64,000 nt of DNA from a phage. A program made the translations under genes and the position numbers. Under the pieces are notes generated by a model that ran no database searches, had not been told where the DNA came from, and saw only the letters and a program-made list of their open reading frames with translations. Position 1 is the first letter of the stretch, and each line of letters starts with the position of its first letter. This document shows, piece by piece, positions 4,173 through 9,633 of the stretch. Location of the stretch: NCBI GenBank assembly GCA_024975835.1, contig GCA_024975835.1_4840.1. One strand, 5' to 3'.

Positions 4173-5561
4173 TTAAACCTTCTGTGCTTGGCCTTTCTCA
4201 ATCGCCTGAGGAGTAGTGGTGGAAGCAGTTGTCTGATTGGTCTGAGGTGGAAGCACCTGCTCCAGCAAACTGTCCTTGGCAATCTCAGCGATGCACTGAT
4301 AATCTTTGGTCAGGCGGGAAATCTTGTGACGCACTTTGGTCACGATATAGTGGCCTGTCGATAGCTTACTTAACTCTGCCAGGTTTTCGTTCTTCTTAGG
4401 ACGGTTGGACTGGTCTTCGACGTAGAACACCTGACCGACGTTCAGGCGGTTATCACCAACGAGCAACACGCGCATCACAGTGCTGGCAAGACTGAAGTTG
4501 ATAACACGACGAGCATAATCAATCTGCTCCGCTCCATCCGGCTGGGCTTCAATGTAACGGACGTTCTGACGATTGAATTCATCTGAGAACATCGGGAACG
4601 GATCAAGGTGAGCCGTCTCTGCAAACCACTCAGTATAGATGCGCTGTGTTGGGGTGACTGTCTTGGTCTCAAAGTCGTAGACGCGCTCGTTCACCGCCAG
4701 GACATCGCGGTAGTTTGCCATGAACTGGTCACGCGCCAGCTTCTTCTCTGCCTTGATGATCGTGCGCATAAAGCGCTCAGAGTTGAAGTTGTTATCCTGC
4801 ATGAGCGGCGCGTCCTGAGGATCACGGAACAACTTGTTCTGCTGAGCTAGTTCCTGCTTCTCTTCTGCTGTCAATGACTGGCTACCCTGGTTGAACAACG
4901 TCGTCAGGCTCTTGAAGTGATAGCCATTGAAGTCTTCATAGAACACGAATGGCATGAACAATTCGTCATAAGAACGGCTCGCCATATAATCAATAGATCG
5001 CAGCACAGGCCAGAGCGGGGTGGCGAACCGCTCTTGAATTCCATACGACGGGTCGATGTCTTCGAACTTGGTGCGCGACTCCAACTGATTGAAGATCACC
5101 TTTGCCATGTCAGAATACGAACCGTCAAGACCGAGGGAGCATCGGATCATGCTGTCCTTGTAGGCATCGGTAGTCACCATGTGCAACCAGAATGCTTTCT
5201 TGGACGAGCTGTTGGACTCATCAGCTACGCGCCCAACACGCGCCACGCGCAGGGAGAGAGTGGTGTATTCCGAGGCCGCCGGACTCTTGAATGACACCAC
5301 AACTTCTTCACCACCCAAGATAGGCATTGTGTCAAGAATGTCCCACCCTTCTTTTATCAAGACATTGGCTGTAAGTGATGGAGATGACTTCCCTTCAAGA
5401 CCCAGATCCTGGAAGACGTTGAACTCCTCAAACAACGCCGTCAGGTCATATGGCGTTGGTGTTCCACCCTGGGGCGTATGAGGGAGGATCGCCATATACT
5501 TCAGGTCAAATGTTGTTGACGGTGTTACAATACCGTCTTGGGTCTCTCTGTTTTCGATCAT
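4173..5561 (-). CDS. putative virion structural protein (baseplate or tail)
   Basis: 462-aa ORF tightly packed between structural-type neighbours on the same strand; no diagnostic motif. Confidence 0.4.
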   Translation of the reverse strand: MIENRETQDGIVTPSTTFDLKYMAILPHTPQGGTPTPYDLTALFEEFNVFQDLGLEGKSSPSLTANVLIKEGWDILDTMPILGGEEVVVSFKSPAASEYTTLSLRVARVGRVADESNSSSKKAFWLHMVTTDAYKDSMIRCSLGLDGSYSDMAKVIFNQLESRTKFEDIDPSYGIQERFATPLWPVLRSIDYMASRSYDELFMPFVFYEDFNGYHFKSLTTLFNQGSQSLTAEEKQELAQQNKLFRDPQDAPLMQDNNFNSERFMRTIIKAEKKLARDQFMANYRDVLAVNERVYDFETKTVTPTQRIYTEWFAETAHLDPFPMFSDEFNRQNVRYIEAQPDGAEQIDYARRVINFSLASTVMRVLLVGDNRLNVGQVFYVEDQSNRPKKNENLAELSKLSTGHYIVTKVRHKISRLTKDYQCIAEIAKDSLLEQVLPPQTNQTTASTTTPQAIEKGQAQKV

Positions 5562-6112
5562 TTCGCCAACTCCTGCTCCAGCTGATTGACAAACGAAGAC
5601 ACATAATCTGGGTCGAGTACTCGGATGTTCCGTTTGGCTTCGTTCTTACTGATTGCATCATCATGGTATGAAACTGCCGTCAGACCATAGTTAGCAATTA
5701 TGGACGGCTCATCTAGGTCTAGGTTATATGCAAATTTGATAGCACGGGCGTCGGTCACATTGTTGAACTGGTCGACATAATAGGCTGTATCCCACATACC
5801 ATCGATGCCGTAATCTGCAGTCAGTTCTTCAATAATACGGCGTTCCGGTTTCGGCCAGTCCTTATTGATGTCCATGATGCCGTTTATCAGACAAGGTATC
5901 CAAAACAACTCGAAGGATCCGTAAACGCGTTCTGCGAAAGACCTTGGGGTTTCCCCCTCTTGGATCGTATACGGCAGCAGAAGCCCTTCGATGTCCTTAA
6001 TTTTCTGTAAGATCATCACCCGGCGCGTTAAGTTCTGTAACAACACCTGATCATTCTCTTGGACATCTTGCAATTGATGCCAAACAAGTGGAAACTTCTC
6101 AAAATATTTCAT
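5558..6112 (-). CDS. putative virion structural protein
   Basis: 184-aa ORF overlapping the downstream gene by 4 nt (operon coupling). Confidence 0.4.
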   Translation of the reverse strand: MKYFEKFPLVWHQLQDVQENDQVLLQNLTRRVMILQKIKDIEGLLLPYTIQEGETPRSFAERVYGSFELFWIPCLINGIMDINKDWPKPERRIIEELTADYGIDGMWDTAYYVDQFNNVTDARAIKFAYNLDLDEPSIIANYGLTAVSYHDDAISKNEAKRNIRVLDPDYVSSFVNQLEQELAK

Positions 6113-6123
6113 GGCATCCTCTC

Positions 6124-7092
6124 TTAGAAGCTATCGCCTTCGGTTTCAAAGCGCCCTTTATGTAGAGGCTCCAGTTCAATGAAGGTCATGTCAACCTGCG
6201 TGGACACGATACCATCATCTTTGTGAACCGCATATGAACTGTCCGGCGTCTCGTTGACGAACATGTTGGAAAGTACACAAGTGGAGATGCGGTGCAGCCA
6301 CTGGTTACGCTCCCCATTGACCATGAACGTAATGTCGAATGTTGAAGGATGCAAGTAAAACGCGCTGGAATTCTTGTTGTACTTGTACTCTGGGTACATA
6401 TGCATCTTGAACATGCGGATGATCTCACGGACCATCTTGGCTTCCTTCTGAGATCGCGGCGTGAATTTGAATGTAAATGGAATCTCACGGTTGCGAACAC
6501 CCTGGAAGATCATCTCCACGTATGGGTTGGTCATGGTGCCTGTGAACAACTCAAGGGTGTCATGGGCGTTAATGCTCGGCAGGAATGGAATAGCCTCCGA
6601 CGCAGATTGGATAGCCTTGGTGGCAGCGAATCGCCCCATCTCCTTCCCGACGTTGAGCGCATCACCCAGTTTAAACTGAGTCATGTCTTGGGCGGCGCGG
6701 GAAAGGAACTGTGCCCCCATACCAGCCAGCCCCAGCTCACTACCATTCCAGCCAACACCATAGTTGGTTGTAATGGACTCAGGCATACAAAGTACGATAG
6801 ACTCGTTTGAACGAACGTGACGCGCCCATGCATATTTGGTGATGGAACCAGACTTGGACCCATAGACCACAGGAGTATTCCCCAGAGGGTTCTGTATTGG
6901 GTTCTCGATAGTCTGAGTAGCCGTATTGCCATAAGATGAACCGGAGATGCGGTTGATGTTGAATAGGACATAGTGTCCCAAGGTCTTACCCCCAGTGACG
7001 TCTAGGGGATAAGACAATTGCTTCTGAGCCTGGGACAATCCCTTCGTGTTCAGAACCTTGATCTTATCGATTGTCTTCTTGAAGTCGGACAT
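6124..7092 (-). CDS. putative virion structural protein, first gene of late operon
   Basis: 322-aa ORF; CTAAATA motif on the minus strand 35 nt upstream of its start. Confidence 0.45.
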   Translation of the reverse strand: MSDFKKTIDKIKVLNTKGLSQAQKQLSYPLDVTGGKTLGHYVLFNINRISGSSYGNTATQTIENPIQNPLGNTPVVYGSKSGSITKYAWARHVRSNESIVLCMPESITTNYGVGWNGSELGLAGMGAQFLSRAAQDMTQFKLGDALNVGKEMGRFAATKAIQSASEAIPFLPSINAHDTLELFTGTMTNPYVEMIFQGVRNREIPFTFKFTPRSQKEAKMVREIIRMFKMHMYPEYKYNKNSSAFYLHPSTFDITFMVNGERNQWLHRISTCVLSNMFVNETPDSSYAVHKDDGIVSTQVDMTFIELEPLHKGRFETEGDSF

Positions 7093-7126
7093 GGTCTCAG
7101 CCCTTAAATAGATAGAGTGTTATGAC

Positions 7127-7133
7127 TATTTAG
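7127..7133 (-). promoter_or_regulatory. late-promoter-like CTAAATA motif
   Basis: Minus-strand CTAAATA 35 nt upstream of the ATG at 7092; same motif and spacing recur before other structural genes. Confidence 0.35.
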
Positions 7134-7142
7134 GACTAGATT

Positions 7143-7880
7143 ATGAGATACTTCGTCTACCAGATAACCAATCTTCTAAACGGTAAGATATATGTTGGTG
7201 CCCACAAAGGCGAACCGGATGATGGCTATATGGGTTCTGGTGTTATGATAACCAGAGCAATCAAGAAACATGGAGTTGAAAACTTCAGAAAGGATATTTT
7301 ATTGGAGTGTGAAACTCAGGAACAAATGTACCTAGAAGAATCCAGAATAGTAACCAAAGATTTTATAGAAAGGGAAGATACATACAATTTGACGCTGGGT
7401 GGATGTGGATCCTTCGACCACATCAATTCAGACCCAGAGGCTAGAAAGCAGGCGTCTACCAAAGCTCTGAACACATTACTCTCTAAACCAAAAGAAGAAC
7501 TGGAAAGAATTTATCGTTCAAGAGCGCTAAACGGTTCTAGAAATTTTTGGTTTGGGAAAGATCGTTCGGGAGAAAATAACCCAAGATTTGGTTGTGTTGT
7601 AGACCAGCAAACCAGGGACAAAATAAGAAATTCAAATAAGCGACTTGTTGAATTGGGGTTGGTAGATTACTCTAATTGCAAAGGGGCTGTGACGAAAGAA
7701 GGGCGCGAGAGAATATCCGAGGCCAATTCCCGAGAATTCAAATTCATCAACCCAGAAGGGCAGTTGGTGACAATTGTCAACCTGGCAAAATTTTGTAAAG
7801 AAAACGGTTTGAGCGAAGGCTCCATGGGCCACGTAAACAAGGGTCGCAATTTACAGCATAAAGGTTGGAGGAAAGCATAA
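7143..7880 (+). CDS. GIY-YIG homing endonuclease (free-standing, Seg-like)
   Basis: N-terminus YFVYQITNLLNGKIYVGAHKG...YMGSG matches the GIY-YIG signature; basic C-terminal region fits a DNA-binding domain. Confidence 0.85.
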   Translation: MRYFVYQITNLLNGKIYVGAHKGEPDDGYMGSGVMITRAIKKHGVENFRKDILLECETQEQMYLEESRIVTKDFIEREDTYNLTLGGCGSFDHINSDPEARKQASTKALNTLLSKPKEELERIYRSRALNGSRNFWFGKDRSGENNPRFGCVVDQQTRDKIRNSNKRLVELGLVDYSNCKGAVTKEGRERISEANSREFKFINPEGQLVTIVNLAKFCKENGLSEGSMGHVNKGRNLQHKGWRKA

Positions 7881-8494
7881 TGGCGCAATATCTTCAAGGG
7901 AAATATGTTCCTGTCAATCCTAAAAAGTACAAAGGCAACCCAAACAAAATCGTATTTCGATCTTCTTTGGAACTTGTGGCTTTCAAGTTTTGTGATACTA
8001 ATCCTGCGATCATTTTCTGGGAAAACGAGGAGACCGTAATCCCTTACATTTCCCCAGTAGACGGGCGCACCCATCGTTACTTCATGGACCTCAAGGTCTG
8101 GACGCGCCGTGAAGGGCAAGAGGAACTACAGGTCACCCTCATTGAGATCAAGCCCAAAGACCAGATCAAGCAGCCGAAGAAGACTCCGAACATGAAGGAG
8201 TCGACATTCAACAATGCGATGCGAACCTGGTTGGTCAACTCTGCCAAGTGGCAGGCCACCCGCGAACTGTGTGCCAAGAAGAACTGGAAGTTCATTATCT
8301 GGACCGAAGAGCATCTTGTTCCAGGTGAAGATCCGGATGTTCGTAAACAGTTTGAGCTGAAGTCGAAGAAGAAACGGGATATGGAGATGCAAGATCGCCG
8401 ACATGCCGAACGTGTCAGGGTGCTGAAGGAACAGATGCGGAAGGAGATTAAACCCGCCCCAACGGAGCGGGATGATGGACTGCTATTACCTTAA
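7880..8494 (+). CDS. hypothetical protein with PD-(D/E)XK-like motif
   Basis: Start chosen at ATG 7880 (GGAGG upstream, TAATG overlap with endonuclease stop); MDLK...IEIKPK resembles a D...E-x-K nuclease core; Lys/Arg-rich C-terminus. Confidence 0.45.
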   Translation: MAQYLQGKYVPVNPKKYKGNPNKIVFRSSLELVAFKFCDTNPAIIFWENEETVIPYISPVDGRTHRYFMDLKVWTRREGQEELQVTLIEIKPKDQIKQPKKTPNMKESTFNNAMRTWLVNSAKWQATRELCAKKNWKFIIWTEEHLVPGEDPDVRKQFELKSKKKRDMEMQDRRHAERVRVLKEQMRKEIKPAPTERDDGLLLP

Positions 8495-8703
8495 CTTCTC
8501 TTGTGGCCAGGGGCGTAACAGGTATGCCTGTCGCGCCCGATTTTCCAACCATCAGCCCGAGCCTGCCTGACACACTCACCCCAAGTCTCACCAGTGTATT
8601 GTTTGAACCCGCACTTGGGATGATGTTCTTCCCAAGCCCAACTGCATGATTTGCAGTCTGAACATTCACAATATAGATCTATGGTGTAGCCTGAAGCGAT
8701 CAT
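8491..8703 (-). CDS. hypothetical small Cys-rich protein
   Basis: 70 aa with 8 Cys (CECSDCKSC...C...C). Confidence 0.4.
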   Translation of the reverse strand: MIASGYTIDLYCECSDCKSCSWAWEEHHPKCGFKQYTGETWGECVRQARADGWKIGRDRHTCYAPGHKRS

Positions 8704-8705
8704 GA

Positions 8706-9113
8706 TCAGTCGTCCAGGTGGTCGTAGATCTTCTGACGGAACGCATTACCACCAGCACAACCCTTGGCCAGCAGGTGGGTGCCGCCCGTACCGATCACGC
8801 TGATTGTTGAGAAGCCCAGGATGCGACCTGTGATGGACTGATCAACCTTCACTGTCTCCACCTTACCGATGCGCAACTCATCAGCATCACGACGGATGAA
8901 ACCACGTTTGACGATGACACGCTTATTAGTCACAGCGAATTCAGTTGTCAATACATTTAAAATTGTTGGTATCAGAAATAACAAGCTGAATCCAAATGTT
9001 GGGATAAACGTTAAAATAACCAGAACGTAAATCCAAAAACCGCTCCACCAGGTCGGGCGGGTGAAGGCAATAACGTGCTCGTCTTTGCCGAGCATACGAT
9101 CTACATAACGCAT
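8706..9113 (-). CDS. membrane protein with bacterial PH-like domain
   Basis: 135 aa; two hydrophobic helices followed by a soluble domain resembling YdbS/YdbT-type bPH proteins. Confidence 0.45.
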   Translation of the reverse strand: MRYVDRMLGKDEHVIAFTRPTWWSGFWIYVLVILTFIPTFGFSLLFLIPTILNVLTTEFAVTNKRVIVKRGFIRRDADELRIGKVETVKVDQSITGRILGFSTISVIGTGGTHLLAKGCAGGNAFRQKIYDHLDD

Positions 9114-9123
9114 GATAAATTCC

Positions 9124-9633
9124 TTATTTGTCAGGGTTCACTAAAACAGGGGTGGATACCAGTTCGCCGTTCTTCACAGAATGCTGGGCTACAACAAACT
9201 GATCGACCATGCGATATACTTCAATTCCAGCAGCCAGCATGTCAATAATGCCGTCTATGATACGATATGGTCGGTCATAGAACACTTTAGCGATCTTGCC
9301 ACTGCCGATAATACGACGGGTGCACTCTGGGCATGGACTATGAGTGACAAACATCACCAGGCCACAACAGTCTTCGGTGTGCTGGGGGAGTTTGCTCAGA
9401 GCATTCTCCTCGGCGTGGATAACACCCACCGATACCAGTTGACCGTCTACTTCCTTCTCACAGACATTAGGAGCGCCAGGAGCAGTCCCGTTCCAACCGA
9501 TAGACAGGGGCTGGTCAACACGCGGGTCAACGATAACACAGCCGACCTTCAGGCGTTGTGCATAGCTGGACAGAGCGTATGCATGAGCCGAGCGCATATG
9601 CGCAAATAACATACGGGGTTTGATAGCCATCAC
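9124..9633 (-). CDS. cd: deoxycytidylate (dCMP) deaminase
   Basis: Zinc-binding deaminase motifs HAEENAL and PCPEC with typical spacing; size as T4 Cd. Confidence 0.85.
   Translation of the reverse strand: MMAIKPRMLFAHMRSAHAYALSSYAQRLKVGCVIVDPRVDQPLSIGWNGTAPGAPNVCEKEVDGQLVSVGVIHAEENALSKLPQHTEDCCGLVMFVTHSPCPECTRRIIGSGKIAKVFYDRPYRIIDGIIDMLAAGIEVYRMVDQFVVAQHSVKNGELVSTPVLVNPDK

Follow-up and report, generated by a model that had tools for sequence, protein, structure and literature searches.

A predicted Seg-type homing endonuclease gene at the gp48/gp4 junction of an Ag3-like phage and its probable footprint in the head-completion gene

Introduction

When a GIY-YIG endonuclease gene and a second gene with a nuclease-like motif overlap at their stop and start codons, does the pair form one mobile unit of two nucleases, or has a single mobile gene settled in front of a resident one? 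This question is raised by positions 7143-8494 of a 64,000-nucleotide stretch of phage DNA (GenBank assembly GCA_024975835.1, contig GCA_024975835.1_4840.1), referred to below as the window. An initial annotation had described the first open reading frame (ORF) as a free-standing endonuclease in a mobile homing cassette, and had regarded the second either as another nuclease or as the gene that holds the target site. From the comparisons described here, we consider it probable (roughly 85%) that a Seg-type GIY-YIG homing endonuclease invaded the junction between gp48 and gp4 of an Ag3-like (Agtrevirus) phage, bringing with it the 5′ tract of gp4, the gene of the head-completion protein.

Two bodies of earlier work bear on this locus. 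The seg genes of phage T4 are promoter-less cassettes that use host promoters, cleave at a distance from their insertion site and leave co-conversion tracts (Edgell, Gibb & Belfort 2010, PMC2988022), and a number of T4 seg and mob genes are on record with this promoter-less arrangement (PMC2988022). In Dickeya phage LIMEstone1, ORF22 (F-LimII) has been listed as a SegD-like free-standing GIY-YIG endonuclease with the head-completion gene downstream (Adriaenssens et al. 2012, PMC3296691). A literature search for endonucleases located at the head-completion gene of Ackermannviridae gave nothing beyond the LIMEstone1 table.

Results

The gp48/gp4 junction in related phages

By its sequence, the phage of the window is assigned to the Ackermannviridae and to the Ag3-like (Agtrevirus), Vi1-like type. 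Positions 5500-9200 are 92-97% identical to Enterobacter phage fGh-Ecl02, several Escherichia coli phages, Shigella phages Ag3 and MK-13 and Salmonella phage P46FS4. In fGh-Ecl02 the starts of gp48 and gp4 lie 50 bp apart with no endonuclease between them. The two sequences are the same through ATGAG, after which the window runs into the endonuclease gene; the left flank is about 98.6-99% identical up to the ATG, with 16 mismatches in 6000-7142. None of the relatives listed at 92-97% identity carries the endonuclease, and a 300-bp probe across the empty junction detected an uninterrupted gp48/gp4 junction in 214 phage-collection records. On the other hand, an endonuclease gene is found at the same position in about 58 phage records of other Ackermannviridae genera, counted as the records covering a probe made up of the endonuclease and the 5′ end of gp4. 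The carriers include all 19 records of Dickeya Limestonevirus, some Salmonella Kuttervirus (Det7, PhiSH19, SenALZ1, KE27) and some Klebsiella Taipeivirus (KpS110). The TAATG start/stop overlap pointed out in the initial annotation is present in the window and in every carrier examined, at an identical insertion position. As the gene is polymorphic at one locus and not universal, its mobility is supported. The synteny comparison had been set beforehand as a test, and universal presence at the locus was not seen (214 empty against 58 occupied). The proposal of a mobile homing cassette thus stood, with the gene absent from the listed relatives, present in records of other genera, and part of a near-identical cassette in backbones diverged by about 3%, as described below.

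Some of the Limestonevirus genes are broken. In Dickeya phage Kamild (L008, 3823-4561), the F-LimII copy is frameshifted into an N-terminal fragment of 145 residues and a C-terminal ORF of 73 residues, and the copies of RC-2014, XF4, phiDP10.3 and Ds5CZ are likewise frameshifted, judged by alignment length and annotation. These copies represent decay, which is expected late in the life cycle of a homing endonuclease.

The endonuclease gene and its product

The coordinates of the features discussed are collected in Table 1. The product of the first ORF matched the Pfam families SegE_GIY-YIG (34.2 bits, cut-off 25) and NUMOD3 (25.3 bits, cut-off 20.4), as well as phrog_314, annotated as 'homing endonuclease' (E=1.5e-45), in agreement with its earlier description as a free-standing GIY-YIG protein. 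The N-terminal 84 residues align with the catalytic domain of I-TevI (1MK0/1LN0; E-value 0.018 for 1MK0), and the alignment places Y6 (of GIY), Y17-V-G19 (YIG) and N82, with the Glu within two residues of E65/E66. Residues 190-244 match the C-terminal module of phrog_2081 and, weakly, the DNA-binding part of I-HmuI (1U3E, E=0.07). In six homologs from four genera, Y6, YVG, R38, E65-E66, N82 and the full length of the protein are all kept, and the gene is under purifying selection (pN 0.13-0.17, pS 0.57-0.78; pN/pS about 0.2). With these features the ORF is identified, at the level of sequence, as a Seg-type free-standing GIY-YIG homing endonuclease gene. It lies outside any intron or intein, between the gp48/gp4 intergenic region and the ATG of gp4, and the neighbouring genes are intact. 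No paralogs of the endonuclease or of gp4 were found elsewhere in the window.

Mosaicism extends to the endonuclease. Its residues 1-149 have their closest counterpart on L009, an IMG/VR contig of 160 kb from an uncultured phage; the segment CVVDQQTRDKIRNSNKRLVELGLVDYSNCKG in the linker (residues ~150-187, window 7590-7700) is LIMEstone1-like where L009 has an unrelated segment; and at the C-terminus 22 residues match Klebsiella phage KpS110 exactly.

Table 1. Features at and around the gp48/gp4 junction of the window
Feature	Position	Strand	Remarks
Free-standing GIY-YIG homing endonuclease gene (predicted)	7143..7880	+	245 aa; N-terminal GIY-YIG, NUMOD3 linker 142-162, C-terminal DNA-binding module 190-244
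gp4, head-completion protein	7880..8494	+	204 aa from ATG; phrog_218 E=6.1e-57
Co-conversion tract (putative), first 147 nt (49 codons) of gp4	7880..8026	+	imported with the endonuclease; recoded
Candidate recognition/cleavage site	8005..8035	+	altered, presumably immune form AIIFWENEETV; gp4 nt 126-156
Late-promoter-like motif TTAAATA (T4-type -10, core TAAATA)	7104..7110	+	would drive the endonuclease-gp4 transcript
Late-promoter-like motif CTAAATA	7127..7133	-	41 nt upstream of the gp48 start; would drive the gp48 operon
Shine-Dalgarno AGGA	7132..7135	+	7 nt before the endonuclease ATG
Shine-Dalgarno GGAGGA for gp4	7867..7872	+	inside the last endonuclease codons (GWRKA-stop), 7 nt before the gp4 ATG
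gp48 baseplate tail-tube cap	6124..7092	-	phrog_230 E=7.7e-114; Pfam T4_tail_cap; left neighbour
gp53 wedge protein	5558-6112	-	left of gp48
Hub/tail protein	4173-5561	-	left of gp53
Terminator-like hairpin in gp4 3′ end	8453..8471	-	8-bp stem, 7 GC pairs, T-rich tail
dCMP deaminase (nucleotide metabolism)	9124-9633	-	after gp4

An imported tract in gp4 and the recent spread of the cassette

We then compared gp4 in occupied and empty loci. Against fGh-Ecl02, the gp4 of the window shows 47 mismatches in its first 147 nt (66% identity) and 8 in the remaining 468 nt (98%). The same division was found in a Kuttervirus pair (PhiSH19 versus PhaxI; 5′ part 72% identical, rest 98%), where the dense tract ends at nt 155, and in a Taipeivirus pair (KpS110 versus PWKp5; 73% and 88%), where it ends at about nt 143. 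In all three pairs the tract stops just before a conserved block, VIPYISPVDGRxHRYFMD, with which the catalytic core begins. By analogy with the T4 seg genes (PMC2988022), such a tract is what repair of a double-strand break, accompanied by co-conversion, would be expected to leave. Of the two roles considered earlier for the downstream ORF, that of target-site gene is supported by this tract over its first 147 nt.

The exact 245-residue protein occurs on four public assemblies or contigs, always at this locus, and L019, one of the four, shows no difference from the window. In two others, L018 and L020, the flanks have diverged from those of the window by 2.9-3.0%, whereas the 917-bp cassette (7143-8059) differs at only 3 (L018) and 2 (L020) positions against 26-27 expected (Poisson P of 1e-8 and 5e-10, respectively). 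Within the gp4 tract, neither has a single mismatch. Three Agtrevirus-like backbones thus carry the cassette. For L009, identity to the window is 82% in the nucleotides of the endonuclease gene (79% in amino acids), 88% in the nucleotides of the gp4 5′ tract and 84-87% in the four flanking genes that were compared. The tract of L009 is therefore no more diverged than its backbone, and L009 resembles the donor lineage. These sequence comparisons indicate that the endonuclease was gained recently in the Agtrevirus-like lineage of the window. Three bases, 7089, 7125 and 8059, are private to the window and L019 with respect to fGh-Ecl02, L018 and L020; the first changes codon 2 of gp48 from Ala to Ser, and the second sits between the two late-promoter motifs.

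A candidate target site within gp4

A search with a 151-nt tract returned 28 endonuclease-less Kuttervirus records at 80% identity (BSP101, S115, S118, allotria, bering, maane and others), a better match than the one between the window and its own empty-site siblings. The gp4 of BSP101 equals that of the endonuclease-less PhaxI over nt 1-125 and shows only 3 differences after nt 147. Between these, at nt 126-147, the 28 records of this BSP101 group carry 11 substitutions that convert AIVYWSSEETV to AIIFWENEETV, the allele of the window and L009. Over this 22-nt patch, the allele of the window is matched at 19/22 nucleotides by BSP101, against 11/22 by PhaxI. The patch lies at 1617-1638 of L026 (Salmonella phage BSP101), is also present in L027-L029, and corresponds to window 8005-8026. 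It looks like the result of short-patch conversion or of escape from cleavage. In carriers of the F-LimII type, the adjacent codons (nt 142-156) are altered to W[GS]SETC. In a sample from IMG/VR, all 9 WSSEET alleles were found without the endonuclease, all 7 carriers had altered alleles, and 3 non-carriers had the patch alone. A scan of IMG/VR for the patch of the window type returned only three known isolates of the BSP101 group and no new carriers. From these patterns we infer a recognition/cleavage site at about nt 126-156 of gp4, which would put it some 130-150 bp away from where the cassette inserted. The altered codons would make carriers immune, and some non-carriers would be resistant through a short conversion patch.

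Promoters, ribosome-binding sites and the TAATG overlap

The cassette had also been thought to be bracketed by CTAAATA-like motifs on both strands. The coordinates given for the two motifs are correct, but both lie 5′ of the endonuclease gene, inside the 50-bp gp48/gp4 intergenic region (7093-7142), and do not bracket it. Both are invariant in the empty-site phage fGh-Ecl02, and the motif at 7104-7110 is also present in LIMEstone1 (HE600015), in whose annotation the equivalent sites are each labelled 'putative late promoter' on opposite strands. In the window, [CT]TAAATA occurs 14 times, and 9 of the 14 lie 8-60 nt upstream of a gene start on the same strand, zones that cover 3.5% of strand positions. 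For CTAAATA alone, 9 occurrences compare with an expectation of 4.6. A T4-type late promoter has a TATAAATA-like -10 element shortly upstream of late genes and no -35 element, a description that the distribution of [CT]TAAATA fits. Since the motifs are present in relatives without the endonuclease, they are part of the resident genome and not of the cassette. As ends of the cassette they were ruled out by their location on one side, their presence in empty-site genomes and their enrichment upstream of genes throughout the window. On sequence grounds we assign them as the putative resident divergent late promoters of gp4 (7104-7110) and gp48 (7127-7133). Sigma-70-like promoters were not found in 6900-8900.

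The ribosome-binding site has a similar history. The sequence TTTAGGACTAGATTATGAG is the same in the window and in fGh-Ecl02, where its ATG starts gp4. The AGGA at 7132-7135 serves gp4 in empty-site phages, and the endonuclease has therefore taken over the ribosome-binding site of gp4. The endonuclease has neither a promoter motif nor a ribosome-binding site of its own: a promoter-less cassette sits exactly at the gp4 start codon, behind the resident promoter motif and Shine-Dalgarno sequence. The GGAGGA near the end of the endonuclease gene replaces the site that the insertion took from gp4. The sequence GGTTGGAGGAAAGC[A/G]TAATG is kept in all endonuclease-carrying genomes, and the peptide [G/L]WRKA followed by the stop codon ends the protein at every locus with the endonuclease. 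Within TAATG (7878-7882), the endonuclease stop codon TAA (7878-7880) overlaps the gp4 ATG (7880-7882), and this overlap together with the embedded Shine-Dalgarno sequence should keep the essential gp4 expressed. We also looked for an autorepression operator of the I-TevI kind; the promoter region and the 5′ end of the empty-site gp4 showed no similarity (score 7, shuffle mean 7.8). Nor was there any signal of a hairpin that would mask the ribosome-binding site of the endonuclease gene (z-score +0.64).

The downstream gene is gp4

Concerning the downstream ORF, its product matched Pfam Tn7_TnsA-like_N (62.9 bits, cut-off 26.5; E=4e-17), with a TnsA-like PD-(D/E)XK core in residues 1-146, and is 37% identical to the gp4 of T6 over residues 6-146. 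Homologs of gp4 are present in 2544 phage records, and tblastn matches included the gp4 genes of T6, RB43, JSE and cyanophages (E down to 1e-26). The D...E-x-K pattern noticed at first is real and corresponds to D70...E89-I-K91; together with E50, these residues are invariant in an alignment of 10 sequences from Ackermannviridae, Straboviridae, Kyanoviridae, Pootjesviridae and phage Cr30, and represent the PD-(D/E)XK signature of the gp4 family. The restriction-endonuclease-like fold of gp4 is a prediction based on the Pfam family and on the PD-(D/E)XK motif and fold predicted for T4 gp4 by fold recognition in 2005, where it was likened to TnsA and T7 endonuclease I (Kosinski et al., PMC1189080). 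A single-sequence AlphaFold2 model of gp4 (mean pLDDT 52, pTM 0.36) was too poor for a fold search, and searches of Protein Data Bank sequences with gp4 alone and with the 10-sequence profile gave only chance-level matches and no sequence-level relative.

The Ackermannviridae gp4 has a C-terminal extension of about 58 residues (residues 148-204; window 8321-8491) which is rich in Lys, Arg and Glu and ends in a conserved DDGLLLP. It is predicted to form one long helix over residues 152-189 and is absent from the gp4 of T-even phages, cyanophages and Rhizobium phages.

The suggestion of a second nuclease belonging to the cassette was not upheld, as the ORF is a gene found with or without the endonuclease, including at the empty-site junctions. 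gp4 is a resident, conserved head-completion protein orthologous to that of T4; its gene is probably the one targeted by the endonuclease, and it is not a partner nuclease.

Neighbouring genes

gp48 is the first gene of a divergent late structural operon, gp48-gp53-hub. This side lies directly upstream of gp4 and diverges from it, and T6 likewise has gp53 divergent from gp4. To the right of gp4, on the minus strand, follow a 70-residue ORF, a membrane-flanked bPH_2 protein and the dCMP deaminase. The placement of the endonuclease gene between a late structural operon and early genes was therefore accurate on the left side only: the adjacent gp4 is a late morphogenesis gene, and genes of nucleotide metabolism appear only after it. 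The 70-residue ORF (8491-8703, minus strand) is rich in Cys and His (CECSDCKSC...HPKC), is convergent with gp4, with a 4-nt overlap at the gp4 stop codon. Its match is phrog_926, of unknown function (E=3.6e-26), and it is annotated in Kuttervirus records but not in fGh-Ecl02 or LIMEstone1. In the 3′ end of gp4, the terminator-like hairpin probably ends convergent transcription from the downstream minus-strand genes; the LIMEstone1 annotation has a putative factor-independent terminator at the equivalent place.

Two further mosaic features were observed around the locus. L018 (SRR29134153) shows a second break: its structural genes are about 97% identical to those of the window, but the dCMP deaminase region (window 9124-9633 versus L018 4982-5942) is only about 67% identical, and the small genes beyond differ. 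In Limestonevirus genomes another mobile gene, for the Hef-like F-LimIII (547 residues), lies between gp53 and gp48 (L002 2116-3759; L008 1116-2759); gp53 and gp48 are adjacent in the window (11 nt apart, 6112-6124) and in the other genera examined.

Discussion

The invasion of the gp48/gp4 junction that we favour could proceed as follows. In a mixed infection, the enzyme would cut endonuclease-less genomes in the 5′ part of gp4, most likely at about nt 126-156. The break would be resected and repaired from the carrier genome, so that the endonuclease gene and the first ~147 nt of gp4 are copied. Crossovers on the left would resolve in the near-invariant intergenic region and the start of gp48, and those on the right in the block encoding VIPYISPVDGRxHRYFMD. 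The heavily recoded imported stretch would protect the carrier from its own enzyme.

Among known systems, the closest are F-LimII and its homologs in Det7, PhiSH19, SenALZ1 and KpS110, which likewise lie between gp48 and gp4 in the same orientation, encode 245-246 residues, and share the TAATG overlap and the embedded Shine-Dalgarno sequence. They are the nearest relatives in the phage collection (74-77% amino acid identity, 77% for F-LimII itself; about 72% in nucleotides), and the nearest of all is the gene on the uncultured contig L009. The lineage of the window is distinct from those of F-LimII and these homologs in the immune gp4 allele to which it is linked (WENEET rather than W[GS]SETC) and in its Agtrevirus backbone; none of the close relatives listed from the phage collection is a carrier. 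As with the T4 genes SegA-G, a free-standing GIY-YIG gene lies between conserved genes, borrows a promoter, holds the signals of the downstream gene in its coding region and shows co-conversion of flanking markers, with an inferred cleavage away from the insertion point; the similarity to the T4 proteins in sequence is only distant (SegE-type Pfam domain, 34 bits). The distance of the presumed cut from the insertion is at the short end of the published range. The architecture of an N-terminal GIY-YIG domain of about 90 residues, a linker and a C-terminal DNA-binding domain recalls I-TevI of the T4 td intron. In contrast to I-TevI, the endonuclease of the window is not intron-encoded, and neither of the regulatory elements sought, operator or hairpin, was found. 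The gp4 of the window shares with T4 gp4 the E...D...ExK residues and a position divergent from baseplate genes, and differs in its C-terminal extension and in its first 49 codons, which are foreign.

Several observations weigh against this interpretation. The generic Pfam GIY-YIG model PF01541 scores only 18.0, under its cut-off of 22.6, and the group I intron endonuclease model TIGR01453 (E=1.3e-10) also stays under its cut-off. The equivalent of I-TevI Arg27 could not be placed with confidence, the alignment being gapped there. In the literature searched there were no cleavage or inheritance experiments for this protein or for members of the F-LimII group. The left end of the conversion tract is invisible because the intergenic region is nearly invariant, and its abrupt right end may in part mark the place at which homology suffices for crossover rather than the position of the cut. 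The position of the target site rests on comparative patterns among genomes that are related to each other and phylogenetically non-independent, and its assignment is therefore a lead and not a statistical proof.

We considered three other explanations of the locus. The endonuclease might be an inactive or domesticated passenger, the foreign block 7143-8026 having arrived by ordinary homologous recombination without site-specific cleavage. Ackermannviridae are indeed mosaic elsewhere, as the 67% identity of L018 across the dCMP deaminase region illustrates, and the boundaries of the block are the best-conserved flanks, where any recombination would resolve. Nevertheless, we consider this unlikely: the same block with the same right boundary is found in three genera, always with the endonuclease; selection on the gene is purifying, and its catalytic residues are retained; the cassettes differ from each other much less than do the backbones around them; and a 22-nt patch at one spot in genes that are otherwise identical would seem to call for a localized break or for strong local selection.

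A history in which the endonuclease was ancestral at the locus and was lost by deletion from the empty-site phages seems less probable still. Loss does occur, since some of the copies present in every Dickeya Limestonevirus record are decaying. However, the empty sites are exact, with the resident promoter and ribosome-binding site leading straight into the gp4 ATG, and a deletion would not create the different gp4 5′ end of these phages; moreover, the listed relatives at at least 92% identity lack the gene, whereas three backbones diverged by about 3% share a near-identical cassette. That the endonuclease and the PD-(D/E)XK protein gp4 form a translationally coupled two-nuclease system is the explanation to which we give the least credence. 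The overlap, the shared promoter and the nuclease folds or motifs in both proteins would fit such a system, but most of the gp4 genes across T4-like phages have no endonuclease upstream, gp4 beyond its first 147 nt is unchanged with or without the endonuclease, and the overlap is simply the way in which the cassette preserves gp4 translation.

The element of the window is a further Seg-like endonuclease of the F-LimII group, with an Agtrevirus-type backbone and a distinct linked immunity allele, and not a new kind of system; by analogy, its mode of action would be the established intronless homing of T4. Two misreadings are corrected by the analysis: the promoter motifs are not the ends of the cassette, and the nuclease-like downstream ORF is outside the mobile element. 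With the preferred reading of a recent invasion in the Agtrevirus-like phages, several stages of the homing-endonuclease life cycle can be seen within one family, continuing with presence in every sampled Limestonevirus record and decay of some copies there, polymorphism in Kuttervirus and Taipeivirus, and apparent escape by a patch-only immune allele in the BSP101 group. The value of the locus lies in this unusually clean natural evidence and in a testable prediction of a target site inside an essential gene.

As a tentative extension, which we think possible but would not favour at present, the endonuclease may constitute, together with the recoded ~50 codons at the start of gp4, a two-part selfish unit, a cutter and an immunity allele, that moves between Ackermannviridae genera. 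The WENEET lineage of the window and L009 and the W[GS]SETC lineage of F-LimII might then be engaged in an arms race over about 30 bp of an essential gene, from which the endonuclease-less BSP101 group would escape by acquiring the 22-nt immunity patch alone. Ackermannviridae are widely proposed as biocontrol agents against Salmonella, E. coli O157, Dickeya and Klebsiella. Should each of the two enzymes cut the allele linked to the other, such phages mixed in a biocontrol cocktail would exclude one another's head-completion markers, and the direction of exclusion would be predictable. Endonuclease-driven marker exclusion could affect recombination and competition among the members of a cocktail.

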